Below, piece after piece: positions 2,853 to 64,000 of a stretch of 64,000 nucleotides of DNA (positions are counted from its first letter, which is position 1; each line of letters starts with the position of its first letter). Source of the DNA: Parcubacteria group bacterium Gr01-1014_30 (GTDB lineage Bacteria > Patescibacteriota > Minisyncoccia > Minisyncoccales > 2-12-FULL-40-12); the NCBI GenBank assembly GCA_007376185.1, contig VMFS01000001.1:10768-74767 (forward strand). Direction: 5' to 3'. A program made the translations under genes and the position numbers. Under the pieces are notes generated by a model. That model worked only from the letters and a program-made list of their open reading frames with translations, was not told the origin of the DNA and ran no database searches.

Positions 2853-4004
2853 ATGAAAGGCGTTCTTGATTTTTTAATCGCGGCAAAGCAATTAACGGAA
2901 AAACCGAGGGCTGGATGGGTCGCCAGAAGAGTCCAAAGTCCGGAAACAACCGCCGAACATATGTTCAGAGTCGCCTTCATGGCTTATATTTTGGGAAGCA
3001 AAAAAGGGCTCAGATTAAAGAACTGCTTAAAAGAAGCCGTTTTAAGCGACTTTCCTGAAACTAAAAGGGGCTCTGACGATTTTTTGAGGGCGAAAAACTC
3101 TTTGGCAAAATTAACTGCTCCTTTAAGAGAAGACCTTCAGCGCGAAATCACTCTAAGATGGCTGGAGTCAGAAAAAGAAATTTCCAAGGAAGGAAAATTT
3201 GTCGCGCAGCTGGACTTGGTGGAAAACTTGATTCAAGCTTTAGAATATCTCGGTTCAGGAGGCAGCCGGGATTTTCTTGAGTTTGCAGAGAAAAAAGTTG
3301 ACGACCCGCTTTTGAAGAATTTTCTGGAAGTAATCAAAAAAAAGTTTTACGGCGCGAAAAGCGCCAAAAAGCAAAAAGAATTAAAGAACATTCTGGAGTT
3401 CTTGCTGCAAGTCGGCAAGTTAAAAAGGATGGGCAGATTGTATTGGAAGTTGAGAAACATTAAAAATCCGGAAACCGTTGCCGACCATATCTATACCCTA
3501 ACTTTAGCCGCTTGGCTTTTGGCTGCTGGCAGAAAAGAGCTGAGTTTGGAAAAACTGCTCAAAATGTCGCTTTGCCACGAACTGTCAGCCGTTTATACGG
3601 GCGATACCACGCCTTACGACAGGATTTTAAGAGAAGGCGGTACGGAAAAAAGGGAAGAAATATTAAAAAGAGTGATTCGCCTTTCAAAAAAGGAGAAAGA
3701 AAGCATTTTTATTCAGGACTACAAGCAGGAAAAAAGGTCTCTGGAAAAACTCGTGCACTCTCTCGCCCCGCACTTGGCGAAAGAAATAATCAAACTATGG
3801 CAAGAATACAGAACCAAGAGCTCGCAGGAAGGAAGATTTCTGTCACAGCTCAATGTCGCGGTGATGTTGCTCCAGGGGCTCATCTACGAAAAGAAGTACG
3901 ACAATTTTTCAGCGGCTCCACTTTGGGAGTTGGCTTTTGAAATTTCTGACCACACCTTGATCTTGAAGTTTCTTGACGAAATGAAGCAAAAATTCTACAC
4001 CTAA
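2853..4004 (+). CDS. Tandem HD-superfamily (YfbR-like) domain protein; first copy degenerate
   Basis: Two repeats of the PRAGW...ETxAEH / R.YW...ETVADH pattern. The second retains CHELSAVYTGD (an HD-like metal site); the first has LSDFPE instead. Confidence 0.65.
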   Translation: MKGVLDFLIAAKQLTEKPRAGWVARRVQSPETTAEHMFRVAFMAYILGSKKGLRLKNCLKEAVLSDFPETKRGSDDFLRAKNSLAKLTAPLREDLQREITLRWLESEKEISKEGKFVAQLDLVENLIQALEYLGSGGSRDFLEFAEKKVDDPLLKNFLEVIKKKFYGAKSAKKQKELKNILEFLLQVGKLKRMGRLYWKLRNIKNPETVADHIYTLTLAAWLLAAGRKELSLEKLLKMSLCHELSAVYTGDTTPYDRILREGGTEKREEILKRVIRLSKKEKESIFIQDYKQEKRSLEKLVHSLAPHLAKEIIKLWQEYRTKSSQEGRFLSQLNVAVMLLQGLIYEKKYDNFSAAPLWELAFEISDHTLILKFLDEMKQKFYT

Positions 4005-10926: not shown

Positions 10927-10966
10927 CGAAGCGAGGCGACTGCCCCTTGCTTGCATTTTCCTGTCC

Positions 10967-11315
10967 GGTGGAGATGCCGAGAGTTGAACTCGGATCCAGA
11001 AAGTTTGCCAAAATCGTCTACAAGCTTAGTCGGTTTAGCCACCTCAAAACGCTGGATATAAAGCCGACAAAACTCCAACATTCCTAAGTCCCTTGAGTTC
11101 CCTGGTTCTGCGGGACGAAAAACCAAGACATCTCGATTTTATGACACCTGATGCCGCCTATCGAGAATCAGCGGTTCAGATGCCGCTAAGCTAAAGCTAA
11201 AGCGGGTTCTCTGTTAAATAAGTTGGCGCTTATTTTTTGTTTTGCCCGCCTGCGCAGGCAGGCGGGCAGGCCTGCTGATTTTGACAAATCATTCCTGTCT
11301 ACGCCTTCCATCCCC
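10967..11315 (-). ncRNA. ssrA: tmRNA (SsrA), tag peptide ANLFNREPALALA
   Basis: 5' GGGGATG pairs with 3' CATCTCC-A-CC, including G3:U. T-arm CCGAG-TTCAACT-CTCGG. Tag ORF GCC AAC TTA TTT AAC AGA GAA CCC GCT TTA GCT TTA GCT TAG at 11186-11227. Directly adjacent to smpB. Confidence 0.88.
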
Positions 11316-25153: not shown

Positions 25154-27295
25154 TTACTCAAGATGCACTCTTTCCCTAAACTCTCTTAACCTCTCCCTTA
25201 ATAAGGGGTATTTTTCTAATTCCGGGTCCAAGTGCAAAATGTCTTTTGCTTCGTTTCTCGCTTTCTCAACCAAAGAAACGTCAGCTAAGGAAGCCATTGC
25301 CAAATCTGGCAGACCCCACTGCCTCTGCCCGGAAAAGTCGCCAGGTCCCCTTATCTTCAGATCCTTTTCAGCCAACTCAAACCCGCTGTCTGAAGACACT
25401 AAAGCGCGCAAACGCCTATTGGTGATTAAGCCCGGTGATTCGGTAAACAAAAAACACCAGGACTGCTCTTGCCCTCTCCCAACCCTGCCGCGAAACTGGT
25501 GAAGCTGGGCCAAGCCGAACTTCTCCGCTCCCTCAATAAGCATTATGGTGGCGTTGGGTATGTCAACTCCAACCTCAACCACCGACGTTGCCACGAGCAC
25601 GTCTATTTCCCCTTCTTTGAAGTTCTGCATAACTTGTTCTTTTTCTTTTGTTTTCATTTTGCCGTGAAGCATGCCGACTTTCAGGTCGGGAAAAACGTCT
25701 TTGGAGAGCTTCTCATACTCTTGTTTCACCGCTTTTACGTCCAACCAACTGAACTGCCTTTGACTAACCTGCCCGTTTAATTGGCCATTAGAAGTTTTGG
25801 AGGGTTCAATTCTCGGGCATATCACAAAGACCTGCCTTCCTGCCTTTACTTTTTCTCTTATAAACTCGTAGGTCTCTCTTTTTTCTTGCGGTTTCACTAT
25901 TTTTGTGATTACTTTTTTCCTGCCCTCGGGCATTTCATCAAGCAGAGACAAGTCAAGGTCGCCAAAAACCGTCAAAGACAAAGTGCGCGGTATGGGGGTT
26001 GCGGTCATAGAAAGCAGGTGCGGAATGAGTTTTGCTTGCCCGCCGTAGCCTCGGCAGAGGCGGGCCCTTTGCTCTACTCCGAAGCGGTGCTGTTCGTCCA
26101 CAACCACAAGGGCAAGATTCGGAAACTTCACCCCTTCCTGAATCAAAGCATGCGTTCCTACGGTAACGTCGGCTTCTTCTTTGATTTTTTTCTTGCCAGT
26201 CATAAGACCTACTTTTATATCAAACACGGCTAGCAGTCTGTCAAAAGTGTCGTAATGTTGGTTTGCCAAAATTTCAGTTGGCGCCATAAACGCGGTTTGA
26301 AAGCCGGCTTTGACGACATTCAAAATTGCAATTGCCGCAACCACGGTTTTACCGGAACCCACGTCACCCTCCAGCAAACGGTTCATGGGTCTTGGTTTTT
26401 CCAAGTCCTTTAAAATCTGCCAAGCGGCTTTCTTTTGAGCTGAAGTTAACTTAAAAGGCAATCCTCCTACAAACTCTTTAATCACTCCCAAATTAAGCGG
26501 TACGGCCTGGGCTTTTTCTTTCGCAAGTTTCAGTCGTTCTCGCAAAACAAAAATAGATAGTTCAAACAACTCTTCAAAAGCGAAGCGTTTTTTAGCTTCT
26601 TGCGAGGACTCAAGATTGTCGGGGAAATGAATCTGCCACAAGGCCTGGTTAAGAGGCAAAAAATCAAACTTTTGTCTTATTGTTTGGGGCAAGGGATCTG
26701 GCAACTTGTCTTTTATTTCCAAAAGCACGGGTTTTACTATAAATCTCAGCCACTTTGACGACAGTCCTTCGGTTTCCGGATAAACAGGAATGAGACGTCC
26801 TGTATGCGTTAAGTTGGAATTTGGAATTTGGAGTTTGTTTAGAACTTCGGATTTAGGATTTCGGATTTTCTCATAAGCCGGGCCTGATAAATACATAGCC
26901 CTTCCTTTTTTGGTCACTTTGCCAGCCAAACAAACGTAGTCGCCCTTTTTGAAAGTGCTAATTAAATACGGCTGGTTGAACCAAATTGCTTTTAAAGTTC
27001 CGGTTTGGTCTTTTAAGGTCGCTTGGGTCAAAACCATTCTTTTCCTGAAAGTCCTTATGTTTTTTAGGTCGGTGATTTCGCCCTGAAAACAAAAAGGCTT
27101 GCCCGAGGAAGCTTCAGCGAAGGCGGGGCCGCCTTCTTCAATGTGAGCTATCGGAATAAGATTTGAGAAGTCCTCGTAGCGGTGAGGAAAGTGAAAAATA
27201 ATGTCGCGCACCGTTTTGATGCCCAAGCGCTTTAGCCGTTTTTGATACCAGGGCCCAACTCGCGGCACTTTTTCAACGGGAGTTGAGAGTTCCAT
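25154..27295 (-). CDS. recG: ATP-dependent DNA helicase RecG
   Basis: 713 aa. Wedge domain, Walker A GDVGSGKT, DEQHRFG, TATPIPRT, QLHQFRGRVGRG. Confidence 0.95.
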   Translation of the reverse strand: MELSTPVEKVPRVGPWYQKRLKRLGIKTVRDIIFHFPHRYEDFSNLIPIAHIEEGGPAFAEASSGKPFCFQGEITDLKNIRTFRKRMVLTQATLKDQTGTLKAIWFNQPYLISTFKKGDYVCLAGKVTKKGRAMYLSGPAYEKIRNPKSEVLNKLQIPNSNLTHTGRLIPVYPETEGLSSKWLRFIVKPVLLEIKDKLPDPLPQTIRQKFDFLPLNQALWQIHFPDNLESSQEAKKRFAFEELFELSIFVLRERLKLAKEKAQAVPLNLGVIKEFVGGLPFKLTSAQKKAAWQILKDLEKPRPMNRLLEGDVGSGKTVVAAIAILNVVKAGFQTAFMAPTEILANQHYDTFDRLLAVFDIKVGLMTGKKKIKEEADVTVGTHALIQEGVKFPNLALVVVDEQHRFGVEQRARLCRGYGGQAKLIPHLLSMTATPIPRTLSLTVFGDLDLSLLDEMPEGRKKVITKIVKPQEKRETYEFIREKVKAGRQVFVICPRIEPSKTSNGQLNGQVSQRQFSWLDVKAVKQEYEKLSKDVFPDLKVGMLHGKMKTKEKEQVMQNFKEGEIDVLVATSVVEVGVDIPNATIMLIEGAEKFGLAQLHQFRGRVGRGQEQSWCFLFTESPGLITNRRLRALVSSDSGFELAEKDLKIRGPGDFSGQRQWGLPDLAMASLADVSLVEKARNEAKDILHLDPELEKYPLLRERLREFRERVHLE

Positions 27296-37127: not shown

Positions 37128-37583
37128 TTATAGCGGGCAATCAACCACTGCCCAGCCGCCGTCTGCCAAACCAGTCCACTCCATTACTCCGATTACATCA
37201 AAGAACAAGCTGACAATTATCCAAGCGGCGTAAATCAAAACCAATCCGATTATTGTCCAAGTGAAGGTTTGCTTGGCTCTTGAAAGCAAAGCTGGACCCC
37301 CCTCTCCTCCCTTTGCCACCACGCCAAAGTAGGCAAACACATACATAAACCCGCCGATGGCTATCATTAAAATGGCTAAGGGTGGAACAATCCTGGTTAA
37401 AAGGTACTGAACTACGTTTTGGAAAAGAACAAAGATGTGACAAAGCTGACACGCTGGCTCATCTTGCCCTCCGCAAGGCACGAGCCCAGCCGCAAAAGAA
37501 ACCAAAGGCATGAGCAAGATTCCCAGAATAATCGTTATAAACAAAATTGAAAATTGAAAATTGAAAATTGAAAATTTCCCCAT
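37128..37583 (-). CDS. VirB2/TrbC-like 'pilin' membrane protein
   Basis: 151 aa. Signal-like N-terminus, Cys pairs (CGG..ACQLC), and two long hydrophobic helices around a GGEGGP loop. Same architecture as the N-termini of ORFs 57367 and 62762. Confidence 0.6.
   Translation of the reverse strand: MGKFSIFNFQFSILFITIILGILLMPLVSFAAGLVPCGGQDEPACQLCHIFVLFQNVVQYLLTRIVPPLAILMIAIGGFMYVFAYFGVVAKGGEGGPALLSRAKQTFTWTIIGLVLIYAAWIIVSLFFDVIGVMEWTGLADGGWAVVDCPL
37543..37577. repeat. Heptanucleotide tandem repeat (AAAATTG x4 plus AAAATTT) inside codons 3-14 of the pilin-like gene
   Basis: Read directly. The coding strand is ATTTTCA x4, giving FSIFNFQFSI. Confidence 0.85.
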
Positions 37584-37659
37584 GGTGCGCCTGGTAGGAT
37601 TCGAGCCTACAGCCTGCGGTTCCGAAGACCGCCGCTCTATCCGGTTGAGCTACAGGCGC
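37583..37659 (-). tRNA. tRNA-Arg (anticodon UCG), CCA encoded
   Basis: GCGCCTG-TA-GCTC..GAGC-G-GCGGT-CT[TCG]GA-ACCGC-AGGCT-GTAGG-CTCGAAT-CCTAC-CAGGCGC-A-CCA. Confidence 0.9.
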
Positions 37660-39371: not shown

Positions 39372-39442
39372 CGGGGCATAGTATACCGGCAGTACACACC
39401 CTTCGGGAGGGTGAAGATTGAGTTCAATTCTCAATGCCCCGA
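39372..39442 (+). tRNA. tRNA-Pro (anticodon CGG), no encoded CCA
   Basis: CGGGGCA-TA-GTAT..GTAC-A-CACCC-TT[CGG]GA-GGGTG-AAGA-TTGAG-TTCAATT-CTCAA-TGCCCCG-A. Confidence 0.85.
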
Positions 39443-39443
39443 C

Positions 39444-39517
39444 GGGCCATTAGTATAGTGGCAATACACCGCATTCGCATTGCGGAGACGTGAGTTCGAT
39501 TCTCACATGGTCCACCA
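39444..39517 (+). tRNA. tRNA-Ala (anticodon CGC), CCA encoded, G3:U70
   Basis: GGGCCAT-TA-GTAT..ATAC-A-CCGCA-TT[CGC]AT-TGCGG-AGAC-GTGAG-TTCGATT-CTCAC-ATGGTCC-A-CCA. Confidence 0.9.
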
Positions 39518-48219: not shown

Positions 48220-48486
48220 ATGTTAGAAAAGAAAGAAAAAACAAAAATAATAGAAAAATACAAACTGCACGAGAAAGACACTGGTTCTACGGAAGTTCAA
48301 ATAGCCCTGCTGACGCAAGAAATAGACCGTCTGCTTTCGCATCTCAAAAAGCACAGAAAGGACTTCCACTCAAAAAGAGGTCTTTTAAAGCAAGTTGCCA
48401 AAAGAAGAAAACTCCTCGGCTATTTGAAAGAAGAAGACGAACCAAGGTACAAAAGTATTGCTAAGAAAATAGGACTAAAAAAATAG
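48220..48486 (+). CDS. rpsO: 30S ribosomal protein S15
   Basis: [49 protein letters not shown]. Confidence 0.95.
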
Positions 48487-48629
48487 AAATCCGAAGCACG
48501 AAGCACGAAATCCGAAACAATGCTTAAATTACCAAAATCCAAATGACCAAAACTGGTTTTAAACATTTAAACATTAGAATTTTGAATTTGTTTCGAATTT
48601 CGATATTCGAATTTCGAATTTAACAATTT
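48487..48629. repeat. ORF-less IVS-like palindromic element filling the rpsO-NYN gap
   Basis: Left arm AAATCCGAAGCACGAAGCACGAAATCCGAAACAA (48487-48520). Right arm TTGTTTCGAATTTCGATATTCGAATTTCGAATTT (48588-48621). Same arm words as the elements at 59637-60020 and 62637-62761. Confidence 0.7.
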
Positions 48630-49136
48630 ATGGCTATTAAGCACATCGGTCAGCGAGTTGGCGTGTTGATTGACGTTCAAAACCTGTATCACTCTGCCAA
48701 GAACTTGTATGGCGCGAGAGTGAACTTTAGGGAAATTTTGCGGTTGGCGGTCTCGGGAAGAAACTTAATAAGAGCGCTCGCCTATGTAGTGCGTACGAAA
48801 ACCGGCGAGGAAAAACCGTTTTTTGATGCGCTAACCAAATTGGGTATTGAAACGAGGATCCGTGATTTGCAGGAGTTTTACGGAGGCATGAAAAAAGCCG
48901 ACTGGGACGTAGGCATCACCATTGACGCAGTGAGAATAGCTCCGGACGTTAACGCTGTAGTTTTGGCTTCGGGCGACGGCGATTTTTTGCAACTTGTTGA
49001 GTATTTAAAGAACCAAGGCAAAAGAGTGGAAATTATGGCTTTTGGCCGTTCTGCTTCCTCGCGATTGAAAGAAGCGGCTGACGAATTTATTGACCTAGGG
49101 CAAACCCCCGCAAAATATTTGCTTAAAGGCCGTTGA
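48630..49136 (+). CDS. NYN-domain (LabA/DUF88-like) protein
   Basis: RVGVLIDVQNLYHSAKNLYGARVNF...VVLASGDGDFLQLVEYLK. Confidence 0.85.
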   Translation: MAIKHIGQRVGVLIDVQNLYHSAKNLYGARVNFREILRLAVSGRNLIRALAYVVRTKTGEEKPFFDALTKLGIETRIRDLQEFYGGMKKADWDVGITIDAVRIAPDVNAVVLASGDGDFLQLVEYLKNQGKRVEIMAFGRSASSRLKEAADEFIDLGQTPAKYLLKGR

Positions 49137-57281: not shown

Positions 57282-57350
57282 GGAAAGTTCGGCCGTCTTC
57301 GCCGTTTTATAGCCGCCGAAGGCGGCTATGCCGAACTTTCGCTACCTGGT
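57273..57350. repeat. 78-nt nested inverted repeat bridging the rsmA stop and the next promoter
   Basis: ACCAGGTAGGGAAAGTTCGGC (57273-57293) pairs with GCCGAACTTTCGCTACCTGGT (57330-57350), 21-nt arms with 1 mismatch. The inner hairpin is ATAGCCGCC-GAA-GGCGGCTAT. Confidence 0.7.
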
Positions 57351-57355
57351 ATAAT
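57347..57355 (+). promoter_or_regulatory. Extended -10 promoter of the secreted-protein operon
   Basis: TGgTATAAT. ATG at 57367, so the leader is about 5 nt with no SD. Confidence 0.5.
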
Positions 57356-57366
57356 TCAATAATCCA

Positions 57367-59636: not shown

Positions 59637-60020
59637 AAGCACGAAATCCGAAATTCGAAATCCGAAACAAATTCGAATGGCTGAAATTCAAAATTCAAAA
59701 CACTACGACCTTGAAAAACGAACTTTTGAATTTGCTAAAGCAGTAAGAATATTTATCAAAAAACTCCAGAAAAACATTTCGAATTTTGAAGACGCAAAAC
59801 AGCTCGTAAGATCTTCAGGCTCTGTTGGTGCAAACTATATTGAGGCAAATGAGTCGCTGAGTAAAAAGGATTTCATGATGAGAATTATGATATCTCGTAA
59901 GAGAAGCTGTAGAATTAATGATGATTTTCAGCGCAATTATGAGAAAAGCTAAATAGTTTATGATATTAGAATTTTGGATTTAGGTATTGTTTCGAATTTC
60001 GTGCTTCGTATTTCGAATTT
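59637..60020. repeat. IVS-like palindromic element carrying a four-helix-bundle gene
   Basis: Left arm AAGCACGAAATCCGAAATTCGAAATCCGAAACAA (59637-59670). Right arm ATTGTTTCGAATTTCGTGCTTCGTATTTCGAATTT (59986-60020). Confidence 0.7.
59677..59956 (+). pseudogene. Four-helix-bundle (23S rRNA IVS-type) protein gene, internally deleted and frameshifted
   Basis: MAEIQNSKHYDLEKRTFEFAKAVRIFIKKL...VRSSGSVGANYIEANESLSKKDFMMRIMISRK follows the family pattern. The listed frame then ends in atypical RSCRINDDFQRNYEKS*, while the +1 frame gives a family-like C-terminal helix EAVELMMIFSAIMRKAK* ending at 59956. Confidence 0.55.
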
Positions 60021-60026
60021 AAGACA

Positions 60027-62636
60027 ATGGCTTTCAATAAAAAACTAATTATCATATCTCTGTTGCTTGCTAGCGCAATAATAGCCGGCGCTGTTTTTGC
60101 CGAACAGATTGCAAAACTGGGGCAAAAAATTGAAAATCGTCTGGAAGTTTACGCTCAAACGACGCCTTTGTACTTTATGCCTCGTTTCCCCGACCGCCTA
60201 AGCTTCATGGTTTCCGAGCTGGCAATAGCGAGCCAAGAACTGGAATACCTGGGCTCAACTTTAAGTTCTGGAATATCAGACTGCGGCTGTCAAAACGCGG
60301 CTTCTGAGTGCTTTGACTGCAACCCAGGAAGAGTTTTAGGCGACCCCTGTCCTCAAAGGCGGCAAATTGAAAGAGACCAGTTTGACCTTGAAATAAAGGC
60401 GGACCAAGTTGTATTTTTGCGCCGCCTTCTGGAAAAAGAGCTAGAAATCTCGCTACAAAGAGAACTGGCAACTCTAAGACAAGACGACGCCCAAAATCTG
60501 GAAAGCTACCTGGACGACATTCTGTCGCAAATCCAGACAATTCTAGACAGTTCGCGGAGTATCTCGGACCTTTCGCAAACAACCACAGAAACCATAAGCC
60601 AGTGCGGGGCGCAATGCGGTTCGGTTGGCGGAGGTTTCGGTTGGCGGGCATGCGTGGGCTTGGTTAGCCAGCAAAAACCTTGGACGGTAAAATGGTCGGC
60701 TGGCGTTGCGCTAAGCGACTTGGAGCTTGGCGGAGTTCAAATAAGAAACATTAACCTTGGCTTGCCCCAGGAAATTACGACTCCCCGACTACCCGACCTG
60801 CCTTCTTTCGCGGTACAGCTTCCTACCGTGCAAATCAACTTCCCGGAAACGCCCTTGGGACAAGCCATTAACTTGGCTCCCCAGCCGGTTGTTTTTCGGC
60901 CGCCATCACCCCAAGTTCCCCTGCCTCCAACCCTTACTTTATCTTGTCCGTCTTTGCCCAACCTGTCTTCATCTTATCAGTGGCCTGACTCGCAAGAACA
61001 AGAGACGATTGCATTTACGCCTTCTGGTTGGGAAGACTGGTTTCAAACCTTTGAAACGTTAAGAGGCATGTGCTTGAACGTCTTGCTTTTTACCTACGGA
61101 GGCAACCACAGTTTCGACTACTTCAACTCTCCTGAATACGCGGCCTGCCAAGACCCACCGCAGGTCAGTCCAACTCTTACTGCTATGTGCAACTCTCTTT
61201 TGGTGGAGTACCAAAACTGCATAAACAACCCGCCAATAGTATGCGTTCCTCCGCCGCCTGAATGCGACTCGCCTCCGCCTGATTTTGACCCGCAACTCTC
61301 TGACAGTTCTCTTGAGCAAGGCGGCGGCTCAGCAACGGCTACGAGCCAAACCATCGGCAACTTCCCCAAAAGCACGCTTGATTGCCCAGTTTCGCCGCCA
61401 ACCATTCCGAAAATCAGGTTTCCCGACATAATCATACCTGACGTCGTAACCCCCGACTTTAGAGTTTGGCCCTTCATTGACATAAAACTGCCTAATTTTA
61501 TTTTTGAGGATTTAATCCTGCCAGACCTCTATCTTTGCGACATAAACAACTGCTCTAACCTCTTTCCTGACTTGCGTTTCCAAACGCCGTTTCTTAACAT
61601 TCCAGAAGTTGCGCTGCCTGCAATTTGTCTGCCTCAGGCTCCTATATTTGCGCCAGGCGCAGGAAACGTTTCAGTAATTATGCCCTGCGTTGGAATAAAC
61701 AACATAAAATACCCAGTAATGCCTTACATTTCTTACCAGTTGTTCAATTTAGGCAACCTTTTGACCCCCGAGGTGGAATTGCAAGGGATTGAGTTTCCTC
61801 TGCCTCGTCTAACTTTTGCCTTCAGAGGCGTTGACATTGACTTCATAGGTCTTCTCTTGGGTTTGTTCTTACCGCCCTTGCCTTCTGGCTGTCTCTCCTT
61901 TGACGTTTTGGGTCTTCCCTTAAGAGTCCACTTTGACGATGTAATTTTTAGCTGGCCTTCTTTTCCGCAGGTGCCCGAAATTCCTTTTTGCAGCGAGATT
62001 AACCAGTTTTGCCGGCAAATAAGATTGAATATGGCCGACGTAACCAGCAAAGTCGGGCAAATACAAAATATCGTCAACAATGTTATGCAAACCCAAATGC
62101 AGACGCGCCTAAACACCGGAGCTCAAACCATAAATCAGCGAATAGCCCAAGCCATTCAGGACCAGCTTGAAGCCCGCGCGCAAAAAGTGCGAGAAAAAAT
62201 AGAAGAACACGTTCGCCTCAACGCCAGAGTCGTGGCTGGCAAAGTGCAAGTTTCGCCTCTGACAATTCAACTTGACCCGATTGTCATACCCCAGCTTTCT
62301 CTGCAAAGTTTATTAGGTATACCAGCCACAATTCAAATTCCGTGGCCCGAAAATCTCAAAAGGGTGCTTTTGAGCCGACCAATAACCTACCAACTGCCTA
62401 AGGTGCCTTTGTCTCAACTTAGCTATGAAACCGAGTTTGACTTAAAAATTCCCGGGTTTCAAATGGCAAGGCCAATCGCCACTTTGGGTCCTTTAAGAGG
62501 CGGCTGTGAAGCTCAAGCGCCTTCAGGCGGCAACCCCTACCCTGTGGGCCAGATTGATTTGGCTCTTTCTGGCTTGACTCGTGCAAAAAACCAAATTGAA
62601 GAAACTTCCCAAAACATAATTGATATATTAAGATGA
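60027..62636 (+). CDS. Large secreted/anchored Cys- and Pro-rich protein, N-terminal region paralogous to ORF 57367
   Basis: 869 aa. Signal/anchor LIIISLLLASAIIAGAVFA. Module DCGCQ...GDPCPQR plus coiled coil, parallel to 57367. QCGAQCGS. Long P-rich tracts. C-terminal Gln-rich helices. Confidence 0.6.
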   Translation: MAFNKKLIIISLLLASAIIAGAVFAEQIAKLGQKIENRLEVYAQTTPLYFMPRFPDRLSFMVSELAIASQELEYLGSTLSSGISDCGCQNAASECFDCNPGRVLGDPCPQRRQIERDQFDLEIKADQVVFLRRLLEKELEISLQRELATLRQDDAQNLESYLDDILSQIQTILDSSRSISDLSQTTTETISQCGAQCGSVGGGFGWRACVGLVSQQKPWTVKWSAGVALSDLELGGVQIRNINLGLPQEITTPRLPDLPSFAVQLPTVQINFPETPLGQAINLAPQPVVFRPPSPQVPLPPTLTLSCPSLPNLSSSYQWPDSQEQETIAFTPSGWEDWFQTFETLRGMCLNVLLFTYGGNHSFDYFNSPEYAACQDPPQVSPTLTAMCNSLLVEYQNCINNPPIVCVPPPPECDSPPPDFDPQLSDSSLEQGGGSATATSQTIGNFPKSTLDCPVSPPTIPKIRFPDIIIPDVVTPDFRVWPFIDIKLPNFIFEDLILPDLYLCDINNCSNLFPDLRFQTPFLNIPEVALPAICLPQAPIFAPGAGNVSVIMPCVGINNIKYPVMPYISYQLFNLGNLLTPEVELQGIEFPLPRLTFAFRGVDIDFIGLLLGLFLPPLPSGCLSFDVLGLPLRVHFDDVIFSWPSFPQVPEIPFCSEINQFCRQIRLNMADVTSKVGQIQNIVNNVMQTQMQTRLNTGAQTINQRIAQAIQDQLEARAQKVREKIEEHVRLNARVVAGKVQVSPLTIQLDPIVIPQLSLQSLLGIPATIQIPWPENLKRVLLSRPITYQLPKVPLSQLSYETEFDLKIPGFQMARPIATLGPLRGGCEAQAPSGGNPYPVGQIDLALSGLTRAKNQIEETSQNIIDILR

Positions 62637-62761
62637 AAGAAGGCGTTAAATCCGAAGCACGAAATCCCAAGCACGAAACAAACTCAAATATCAAATGACC
62701 AAAATCCAAAACGTTTTGAATTTAGAATTTCGAATTTAGATATTGTTTCGAATTTAATTGT
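62637..62761. repeat. ORF-less IVS-like palindromic element
   Basis: AAATCCGAAGCACGAAATCCCAAGCACGAAACAA ... CCAAAATCCAAAACGTTTTGAATTTAGAATTTCGAATTTAGATATTGTTTCGAATTT. Confidence 0.7.
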
Positions 62762-64000
62762 ATGAATGCTCTGAAAAAGTTTATAGTGTCAGCCGTACTC
62801 GCCTTACTGCTTTTTTCTTTCCTGCCCTCTCAGGCGTTTGCCCAAGAAGAAAGGCCGCTTGAGGTCGTGTACCCAAGCATTCCCGGAGCCCCAACTCCAA
62901 CCAGCGTTGAAACCGCCCTGCCAGAATACGTTCAATACATTTTCCGGTTCGCGCTCATTATCATCGGCTTCATAATTTTCGGCGTCTTGATTTACAACGG
63001 AGGCCTATATATGACTTCCTCGGGAAATCCTACAATGATGGGAGAAGCGAGAAGCGGAATTTTGGCGGCAGTTTTCGGCCTATTAGTTCTGCTCGGCTCC
63101 TGGCTTATTTTCAACACCATCAACCCGCAGTTGGTAGTGCTTGAACAAACACCTTTGGATCCTTTAAGACCCGTAATGCAAGCTGGCATCTATGTTTGCG
63201 TTGACGGGGGGCAAGCGGCTCCCGTAATTTCCAGCTTGCTTCCCAGCTACATAGAGGGTGACCGCGACATACAAATTGAAGCCGCCAAACAAATCGGAGA
63301 AACAATGATAGAGTTCAGCTGCTTTAGATTGGGTGCTTCTGGAAACTTTAATAACTTTACGGTGAGACAAGGCCAAAACACTTTCTTCAGCGTGCCCGAC
63401 GTAAGGGTAAATGAACAAAACGACCTCGTGTATGACGTTTACGAGTACGGCTTAATCTTGCACGAAAAAGACAATTTCAGGGGAAAAGCCATACTCGTTG
63501 AACCGCCTTACGCCAGGTTTAACCCCCTTGCCACTGCCAACCTCGGGAGAAGCGGCAACTTCCCTCCTCTCAATTTCATTGCAAAATCATTTACTCTTTT
63601 CAGGAAAGTGCCGGAACCCTTAACAGAAAGCCCTGGAGCCACTTTGTTTGCCTGCTTAAACTACAACGAACCGCCTTTTGCGTGCAAAGAAGAGGGCGAC
63701 GAAAATATTTCTGCCTCTTTCGGAACGGCAGGCGGCGACACAGCATACTTCAGAGAAGCCGATCTTAACACCAACATCACACTAGCTGAAAACACCAGGT
63801 CAATACAACTTGAGTCTGAAGACGGTATGTTTGCGGTTATGTTCAGCGAAAACAACTTCAGAGGCGACACCGTTGAAGTGATTAAAGCCGGCGACAGAAA
63901 CCTTCAAGACAACCCCATTGGTCGGTGCGGCAACGCCTGCACCGCCGTCATTGGCGGAGTTATTAGAATTTTTGGGGGAGAATGCGACTCCTGCGTCAGG
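62762..64000 (+). CDS. Pilin-like N-terminus fused to beta/gamma-crystallin-like repeats; 3' end beyond the window
   Basis: Absent from the ORF track because it runs off the edge. ATG at 62762, 413 open codons. Signal ..SQAFA/QE, LPEYVQYIF, TSSGNPTMMGEARSGI, INPQL. Later LILHEKDNFRGKAILV and AVMFSENNFRGDTVEV (Y/F-x4-F-x-G Greek-key-like). Confidence 0.6.
   Translation, partial: MNALKKFIVSAVLALLLFSFLPSQAFAQEERPLEVVYPSIPGAPTPTSVETALPEYVQYIFRFALIIIGFIIFGVLIYNGGLYMTSSGNPTMMGEARSGILAAVFGLLVLLGSWLIFNTINPQLVVLEQTPLDPLRPVMQAGIYVCVDGGQAAPVISSLLPSYIEGDRDIQIEAAKQIGETMIEFSCFRLGASGNFNNFTVRQGQNTFFSVPDVRVNEQNDLVYDVYEYGLILHEKDNFRGKAILVEPPYARFNPLATANLGRSGNFPPLNFIAKSFTLFRKVPEPLTESPGATLFACLNYNEPPFACKEEGDENISASFGTAGGDTAYFREADLNTNITLAENTRSIQLESEDGMFAVMFSENNFRGDTVEVIKAGDRNLQDNPIGRCGNACTAVIGGVIRIFGGECDSCVR

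Follow-up and report, generated by a model that had tools for sequence, protein, structure and literature searches.

The 64,000-nucleotide (nt) stretch analysed here, hereafter the window, is part of a contig of Parcubacteria group bacterium Gr01-1014_30, and all coordinates are window positions. In one of its operons, ksgA is followed by a gene encoding a 754-residue T4SS_pilin-domain protein, the hairpin element B (59637-60020), a gene for an 869-residue protein that returns no Pfam match, element C, and a further T4SS_pilin-domain gene. The first-pass annotation had described element B as a four-helix-bundle (4HB) gene of the rRNA intervening sequence (IVS) type, inserted between two operon genes in the loop of a long hairpin with 34-35-nt arms; arms are indeed found at both ends, and the gene reaches the PF05635 and TIGR02436 cut-offs. 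As the sequence comparisons show, element B belongs, in decayed form, to a widespread family of hairpin-bounded cassettes with arms of 4-5 heptamers, an inner stem over the start codon, and one PF05635 gene in the loop. Its 5' arm (59637-59670, + strand, AAGCACGAAATCCGAAATTCGAAATCCGAAACAA), of a type that also flanks relatives, consists of five tandem heptamers, AAGCACG AAATCCG AAATTCG AAATCCG AAACAA. The 3' arm (59987-60020, + strand, TTGTTTCGAATTTCGTGCTTCGTATTTCGAATTT) reads TTGTTTCG AATTTCG TGCTTCG TATTTCG AATTT, and the ATG of the next gene lies at 60027, 6 nt past its end. The arms, 34 nt each, are built from heptamers of the CGAAATy/GCACGAA type and are complementary at 26 of 34 positions when compared position by position in full heptad register, and a repeat search reports 17-20-nt sub-arms at 85-94%. 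Inside them, the 5' inner stem (59671-59700, + strand) holds the ATG (59677) and the first codons, MAEIQNSK, and the 3' inner stem (59965-59986, + strand, ATTAGAATTTTGGATTTAGGTA) carries a motif that is also found 5' of the 3' arm in element A, an ORF-less hairpin of the window (ORF, open reading frame), and in relatives. The predicted RNA fold forms this inner stem by pairing ~59680-59697 with 59960-59978. Since the same arms flank relatives in many genomes, those of element B are not due to chance. Rfam analysis at gathering thresholds (the window and four related loci) returns no family at the hairpin elements, and in the window it returns only transfer-messenger RNA (tmRNA) and tRNAs; no rRNA is reported, so element B lies outside any rRNA gene.

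The listed frame of the 4HB ORF (59677-59952, + strand) encodes 91 residues and is identical to the deposited protein P0001 of Gr01-1014_30, annotated as 'S23 ribosomal protein'. Its PF05635 score is marginal (34.2 bits for a cut-off of 33.8; profile positions 5-67 of 106) and its TIGR02436 score is 42.3 bits (cut-off 24). In both cases only the first ~63-67 of 106-109 profile positions are covered, and the family match stops near residue 75. The R-x3-S-x3-N-x2-E motif conserved in helix 2 of the 4HB family (PMC3936711) is present as RSSGSVGANYIE with the correct spacing. The closest intact relatives, P0002-P0004, share 65-68% identity with the frame-repaired query across 99-100% of its length, and intact relatives comprise 120-125 residues. 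The decay by deletion plus frameshift postulated after ...ISRK is confirmed by DNA alignment with the relatives L001, L005, and L006, in which 86 nt are absent at this point. An nhmmer model of the coding sequence (CDS) matches element B at model positions 1-224 and 303-357, with an overlap of ~8 nt at the junction (cgtaa/gagaagct, 59896-59908, + strand), where ~8 nt of microhomology make the exact break ambiguous. Beyond it, the +1 frame encodes a remnant of helix 4, EAVELMMIFSAIMRKAK followed by a stop codon (59903-59956, + strand), in agreement with the relatives' C-terminus ...EATELMMIFSAIMRKS. The loss amounts to ~29 codons, equivalent to residues ~77-105 of P0002, the region where helix 3 ends and helix 4 begins in its AlphaFold model (pLDDT 87; residues 1-9, MAEIQNPKH, disordered). 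One net loss of 86 nt both removes ~29 codons and shifts the frame, and a single event therefore explains both defects. The window copy falls short of a complete four-helix bundle (~105-125 residues); judged by these alignments it is a pseudogene whose encoded protein is dead, and the remainder in the window has at most a role as intercistronic RNA or DNA hairpins. A 92-residue 4HB variant, P0026 (L228 1470-1870, from a Verrucomicrobia metagenome-assembled genome and present on six contigs), is bracketed by the same arms and has lost sequence in frame at the EAKE/EATE direct repeat where the window copy is also broken, which suggests that deletions recur at this hot spot or that the short form is tolerated.

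Three orthologous operons (40-47% protein identity) provide the empty counterparts of the site. The junction that holds element B measures 395 nt in the window versus 20-33 nt in the orthologues, that of element C measures 125 nt versus 4-23 nt, and no arm words are found at either junction of the three operons. As the orthologous gaps are short and devoid of arms, element B is an insertion. The comparison of the operons thus shows that it was inserted in a short spacer of a co-directional operon, and that the decay of its ORF came later. Upstream in the same operon, the gap between ksgA and the pilin gene (57282-57366) is 85 nt long versus 20-35 nt in the orthologues and contains a different, GC-rich nested inverted repeat (GGAAAGTTCGGC...GCCGAACTTTC, with GCCGCCGAAGGCGGC inside). 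After it comes TGGTATAAT, reminiscent of an extended -10 promoter that would serve the operon with elements B and C.

Two ORF-less elements had also been placed at 48487-48629 and 62637-62761 in the first-pass annotation. Both exhibit the same arm words and inner-stem motifs as element B, and the second is refined to 62648-62755. Element A (48487-48629, + strand; 5' arm 48487-48520, 3' arm 48588-48621) fills the entire gap between the stop codon of rpsO (S15) at 48486 and the ATG of an NYN-domain gene at 48630. It matches an nhmmer model of ORF-less relatives with E = 2e-29, its predicted RNA fold has an energy of -27.8 kcal/mol, and it has exactly the same termini as an ORF-carrying element from another genome (L006), so that ORF-carrying and ORF-less copies do share termini. 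Element C (62648-62755, + strand), lying between the stop codon of the 869-residue protein gene at 62636 and the ATG of the T4SS_pilin-domain gene at 62762, is degenerate: its 5' arm (62648-62681) is retained and its 3' arm is reduced to TTGTTTCGAATTT (62743-62755). It matches the same model with E = 1e-16 and folds no better than shuffled sequences. A solo 5'-arm-like stretch (26803-26875, - strand, AAAATCCGAAATCCTAAATCCGAAGTTCTAAACAAACTCCAAATTCCAAATTCCAA; nhmmer E = 2e-9 to 2.5e-8), with no 3' partner arm, lies in frame within the ORF of a RecG-like helicase (25154-27295). It encodes EKIRNPKSEVLNKLQIPNSN, located between GPAYE and LIPVYPETEGL in the wedge domain, and the RecG_wedge match of this gene spans 179 residues for 152 profile positions. 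This stretch, a tentative member of the family, may be an exapted half element. With terminal inverted repeats, a small size, and three copies and a solo arm within 64 kb, the elements display traits of MITEs (miniature inverted-repeat transposable elements), and other single genomes also carry several copies of the hairpin element.

Species-representative genomes were scanned with the 34-nt 3' arm pattern, yielding at least 120 loci; together with the window and six earlier loci, 131 matches to the pattern are found among the matches listed. Record titles label these loci as Desulfobacterales, Syntrophobacteria, Pirellulales, Phycisphaerae, Chthoniobacterales, Aminicenantes, Gammaproteobacteria, Armatimonadetes, Nitrospiraceae, Binatia, Victivallales, and many Patescibacteria, complete chromosomes included, and the GC content of the 120 loci listed ranges from 30 to 71%. 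A 5' arm lies within 250 nt in 80 of the 131 listed matches, which are ORF-less hairpins. Only L030 and L083 of the listed matches carry an intact ORF, and L037 keeps an ORF remnant of 64 nt. This remnant is the only one among ~125 ORF-less loops, and derivation from ORF-carrying copies cannot be shown for most of them; the ORF-less consensus retains the ATG and ~8 codons. Sequence comparison nevertheless shows that the hairpins A and C belong to the family of element B, and that some ORF-less copies arise by internal deletion, element B and L037 being intermediates between the two kinds. The relationship first proposed between them, autonomous versus MITE-like, stands as regards the link to the ORF-less copies, with their shared termini and these two intermediates, but 'autonomous' goes further than the observations, as the 4HB protein is the only one encoded, no transposase is found, no target-site duplication is seen, and the ORF-less loops are unique. 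Close relatives in other genomes of the candidate phyla radiation have the same arms and a similar setting, being arranged for example as RNase J / 4HB / tRNA-synt_1b gene or PilM / 4HB / PilO. In addition, 80 metagenome loci encode close relatives, and most of the flanks seen by eye, about two-thirds of the total, show the same arms, although these were not counted.

The arms possess 4 or 5 heptads each, almost without exception, and their pairing is heptad-periodic, with five paired and 2-3 unpaired positions per heptad. Covariation from G-C to T-A affects the same position of each heptad, and 46 of 57 elements have two arms of concordant type (34 CG/CG and 12 TA/TA, as compared with 2 TA/CG and 9 with a mixed arm). 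Some metagenome loci exhibit a CTAAAT/ATTTAG variant in which the compensating change affects every heptad of both arms. Arm sequences are nearly identical across relatives despite the divergence of the CDS, which argues for a sequence-level constraint on the arms and not only for recent transfer. The cassette is also found at one junction in eight metagenome contigs (L146, L151, L176, L178, L181, L185, L188, and L193), just upstream of an ORF beginning M..AHVYKRDHINTDEIIP, which we take, from its sequence and by eye only, to be leuD. The arms are of the CTAAAT type in seven of these contigs and of the CGAAAT type in the eighth; the cassette seems to be long-lived at this place, with a concerted change of all heptads.

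Between the arms sampled, the only ORF is that of the 4HB protein, occasionally with a small extra cargo, and no transposase is found. In L005 the stretch from the 4HB stop codon to the 3' arm holds a 58-residue ORF (489-665) that looks hydrophobic by eye, and in L006 ~100 non-coding nt occupy the same place (3367-3460). In L063 and L077, ORF-less hairpins enclose GC-rich sequences that resemble palindromes or terminator hairpins, which raises the possibility that the arms can come to flank pre-existing host hairpins. Intact 4HB relatives return no match with PADLOC or PHROGs and match only PF05635 in Pfam. The 4HB protein has a median dN/dS of ~0.11 over the 97 sequence pairs that passed the distance filters (93% of CDS pairs failed them, read as mostly synonymous saturation, the reasons being untabulated), and by this measure it is under purifying selection. 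Gene orientation was counted with genes called by a crude longest-ORF rule, and the counts are approximate. Of 66 ORF-carrying loci, 61 follow a gene of the same direction (binomial p = 3e-13) and 50 are followed by one. Because of this upstream bias, the 4HB gene is read as dependent on read-through transcription; a scan of the consensus reports no promoter or terminator signal above shuffles. The ORF-less copies (n = 46) have no orientation bias, with 19 (+,+), 20 (-,-), 6 convergent, and 1 divergent.

The presence of one arm sequence at non-orthologous sites, in loci of 30-71% GC and under the labels of many phyla, implies horizontal spread. A phage vector was considered and rejected, the arm pattern occurring in just 2 of 2.9 million viral contigs. 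For plasmids, an ORF-less copy gave no blastn match, though the low-complexity filter may hide some, and only distant 4HB paralogues were found. We also attempted to fix the ends of the element from identical copies in Nostoc flagelliforme, and abandoned them since the identity spans the whole 531-nt query including ~20 nt outside each arm; these copies probably reflect a larger duplication. The arms could be DNA terminal inverted repeats acted on by a transposase encoded elsewhere, HUH/RAYT-like or DDE, with the 4HB gene as a passenger (RAYT, REP-associated tyrosine transposase; REP, repetitive extragenic palindrome). The small size, the several copies per genome, the termini shared by ORF-carrying and ORF-less copies, the equal stability of the stems on both strands, the lack of orientation bias of the ORF-less copies, and their intergenic location with divergent gene pairs being rare (1 of 46) would all suit such a transposon or MITE. 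However, no transposase lies between any sampled arm pair, and no cognate autonomous element with the same ends and a transposase is found. No target-site duplication is seen by eye in ~130 copies, with the qualification that element ends are unfixed and the empty-site orthologues are only 40-47% identical. Moreover, in a given genome the ORF-less copies have loops that bear no relation to one another, unlike those of amplified MITEs; they are not copies of one master, and master-copy amplification within a genome is rejected. Finally, a mere passenger is expected neither to be under such strong purifying selection nor to be associated with its own lineage-specific heptamer in distant lineages, as described below for all those checked but one. 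We therefore view the transposon explanation as unlikely.

The structure of the protein suggests another role for the arms. The AlphaFold model of P0002 matches 2RLD, 2GSC, and the Avd structures 4DWL/8UB7 at template modeling (TM) scores of 0.7-0.85. The entries 2RLD, of BT0352, and 2GSC, of XCC0516, have five chains each, and the solved 4HB relatives are pentamers (PMC4990558). In the ribonucleoprotein of diversity-generating retroelements (DGRs), a single RNA stem-loop is gripped by all five Avd protomers, its flipped-out bases lodging between them (10.1101/2023.10.23.563531). The heptad stem with its unpaired positions, the pentameric relatives, and the Avd precedent together lead us to propose the stem as the cognate site of the pentamer. 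Avd shares with the present family the fold and the pentameric barrel, and it binds an RNA stem-loop next to its own gene; it differs in that no reverse transcriptase occurs among the adjacent genes here, in that sequence identity is ~10-12%, and in that heptamer arrays are unreported for Avd. Could the 4HB ORF then be a decayed avd gene, left by a DGR? PF05635 proteins resemble Avd (PMC10053308), and the model aligns with Avd 4DWL at TM 0.71/0.79. The neighbours of element B are nevertheless ksgA, two T4SS_pilin-domain proteins, and the 869-residue protein, none with a reverse transcriptase domain (a TR/VR, template and variable repeat, pair was not searched for), its relatives sit between unrelated housekeeping genes, and identity to Avd is only 10-12%. 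A DGR origin is thus rejected for want of a reverse transcriptase among the neighbouring genes, and we regard it as highly improbable.

The 23S rRNA IVSs of Leptospira and Coxiella burnetii are among the closest known counterparts. They harbour the same 4HB family in the loop of a stem formed by terminal inverted repeats, their ORF is decay-prone, and they are co-transcribed with the host RNA, as proposed here for element B. In Coxiella the IVS stem is 28 bp long, GACAGAT heptamers lie in tandem upstream of the ATG, and RNase III cleaves the IVS in vitro (PMC4990558). RNase III excision is thus shown for the IVS, and the host transcript differs, being an mRNA operon in the case of element B. 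Eight short rRNA signature motifs, used as a crude screen, matched none of 207 related loci. Two other differences are that the arm sequence of the present family recurs across phyla and that its ORF-less derivatives outnumber its ORF-carrying copies.

On these grounds the best overall explanation, in which we place slightly better than even confidence, is a read-through cassette whose heptad stem serves as both a pentamer site and an RNase III substrate. The cassette would lack a promoter of its own, its expression depending on read-through from the host gene upstream. Once transcribed, the arms would form a long imperfect duplex, with five paired and 2-3 unpaired positions per heptad. By analogy with Avd, this duplex could be the cognate binding site of the 4HB pentamer, with one heptad per protomer. 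The same duplex would likely be a substrate of RNase III, as in the rRNA IVSs, and its cleavage would sever the polycistronic RNA and set the loop free. Spread to new sites would need a further factor.

Several observations weigh against this explanation. The hairpins of the window are weaker than typical family members: RNA fold z-scores versus shuffles are -1.6 for element B, -2.5 for element A, and +0.6 for element C, as compared with -3 to -5 for three relatives that fold end to end. The covariation of the arms would also be expected if one protein recognised both ends as double-stranded DNA. In ORF-less copies the minus strand gives the more stable fold, by ~3 kcal/mol (p = 0.002); the arms of ORF-carrying copies display no strand difference in stability (p = 0.24). 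With stems about equally stable on both strands, nothing favours RNA over DNA, whether as a cruciform or as a single-stranded DNA hairpin. The match between 4-5 heptads and five protomers is for the present numerology, and the Coxiella IVS ORF is reported as probably not translated (PMC4990558). Lastly, with no transposase, no target-site duplication seen, and ORF-less loops that are each unique, the term 'mobile' is inferred only from the scattered, non-orthologous sites.

Distant PF05635 genes (less than 40% identity) from cultured organisms likewise have co-directional neighbours on either side and are bracketed by inverted heptamer arrays, each lineage having its own unit. In Nostoc flagelliforme the arms are (AATTCAA)n and complementary at 31 of 31 positions. 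Dolichospermum pairs TAATTCG with AATTACG, Chlorohelix displays AAGGATG/AATTATG, Chondrinema has CAGTnnn units between two subunits of a resistance-nodulation-division (RND) pump, and Pseudanabaena (L218) has GGAAGAG... between csx2 and cas1. The heptamer arms of Bernardetia are unclear. For Xanthomonas, the sequence of XCC0516 was partly recovered from a PDB alignment, the Xanthomonas genes were then found, and their flanks were read: the 4HB gene is found with accB on one side and accC on the other, and an inverted pair of GGGAATC arrays encloses it. Rhodanobacter and Dyella keep the accB-accC location with the units GGGATTC and GGGAATA, respectively, and their matching 3' arms reach the start codon of accC. 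The pairing of 4HB genes with heptamer arrays is therefore clear in nine lineages of the ten examined, to which the literature adds Coxiella. Xanthomonas genomes contain ~185 GGGAATC arrays each, 70-75 of them forming inverted pairs (Rehm et al. 2015, PMC4692102). Four is the favoured number of units in these arrays, which sit close to stop and start codons between aligned ORFs and are under-represented where ORFs diverge. Conservation between species, transcription of most arrays, and an association with stable loci are also reported, and the arrays were interpreted as G-quadruplex repeats, no link to the 4HB gene being made (PMC4692102). The GGGAATC arrays and the heptamers of Nostoc and other cyanobacteria resemble the window arms in being tandem arrays with a preference for ~4 units, many of them in convergent inverted pairs, between aligned ORFs near stop or start codons, with the difference that the CGAAATy unit of the window is A/T-rich and cannot form a G-quadruplex. 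A literature search returned no paper linking 4HB genes to heptamer arrays. A broader proposal, which we hold plausible though short of probable, is that PF05635 pentamers and tandem-heptamer hairpins constitute one widespread protein-repeat partnership: each lineage would have its own unit, the gene would lie inside one hairpin, genomes would accumulate ORF-less hairpins or arrays, and the pentamer would bind 4-5 heptads, one per protomer.

A different alternative is a regulatory module domesticated by the host, as opposed to a selfish element, in which the hairpins would be intercistronic signals for RNA processing or stability, or non-B DNA, and the single-copy 4HB protein a vertically inherited trans-regulator. 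The accB-accC position kept in Xanthomonas, Rhodanobacter, and Dyella agrees with this idea, as do the eight metagenome contigs with the cassette upstream of the ORF read as leuD from its sequence alone. The 3' arm abuts the start codon of the essential accC and of the downstream genes in the window, and the arms are nearly identical though 93% of CDS pairs failed the distance filters. The conservation, transcription, and stable loci of the Xanthomonas arrays (PMC4692102) point in the same direction. Yet the protein gene of the window is dead and two of its hairpins are degenerate, the orthologous operons manage without the element, and the recurrence of the arms at non-orthologous sites, in genomes of 30-71% GC bearing the labels of many phyla, implies horizontal spread. 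Domestication is accordingly an improbable explanation in our view, and the read-through cassette is retained.

Other families of bacterial hairpin repeats are useful for comparison. REPINs with their RAYTs, as well as REP sequences and bacterial interspersed mosaic elements (BIMEs), are abundant extragenic hairpins of ~100-200 nt without target-site duplications, partnered with a small and often single-copy protein gene that is inherited vertically. The accB-[4HB]-accC arrangement of Xanthomonadales resembles such a single-copy partner gene. In the present family, however, the partner is a four-helix bundle encoded inside the hairpin and not an HUH Y1 transposase, and the hairpin sequence is cross-phylum and not lineage-specific. 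Correia elements of Neisseria and the ERIC (enterobacterial repetitive intergenic consensus) sequences of Yersinia are MITE-type intergenic hairpin repeats that are co-transcribed in operons, are cleaved by RNase III or influence the stability of the mRNA, have target-site duplications, are lineage-restricted, and contain no protein gene in the loop. They share with the present family the insertion of transcribed hairpins in operons, and only here is a protein gene found in the loop. A literature search for the arm sequences and for PF05635/S23p returned no description of mRNA hairpin cassettes or of a link to heptamers, and the hairpin-cassette family is not found described as a family in the literature searched.

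To our knowledge, no function has been known for the S23p/IVS four-helix-bundle proteins since 1993, and we know of no accepted explanation for the excess of heptamer repeats in bacterial genomes. With a single exception, all the lineages checked, among them the cultivable Xanthomonas, have 4HB genes and heptamer arrays next to each other, which makes both questions testable. If true, the protein-repeat partnership would unite the rRNA IVSs, the GGGAATC repeats of Xanthomonas, perhaps the cyanobacterial heptamers, the 4HB genes scattered in cas and other operons, and the origin of the DGR Avd protein. The window itself is modest in this respect, comprising a dead copy and two or three degenerate hairpins, and the interest lies in the cross-phylum family and in the apparently unrecognised pairing of 4HB genes with heptamers. 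A caution also follows for genome annotation, as 4HB genes in cas, restriction-modification, or biosynthetic operons may be lodged cassettes and not functional partners. Those in cas loci were earlier read as a functional association (PMC3936711), and their position may instead reflect the insertion of a cassette between co-directional genes. On plasmids of two unrelated organisms, Chlorohelix and Dolichospermum (L217 and L220), the distant 4HB gene lies between a helicase-related gene and a DNA methylase gene. The RNA genes of the window are ordinary features, comprising the tmRNA (10966-11315, - strand), with the tag peptide ANLFNREPALALA, and tRNA-Arg(TCG), tRNA-Pro(CGG), and tRNA-Ala(CGC) at 37583-37659 and 39372-39517.

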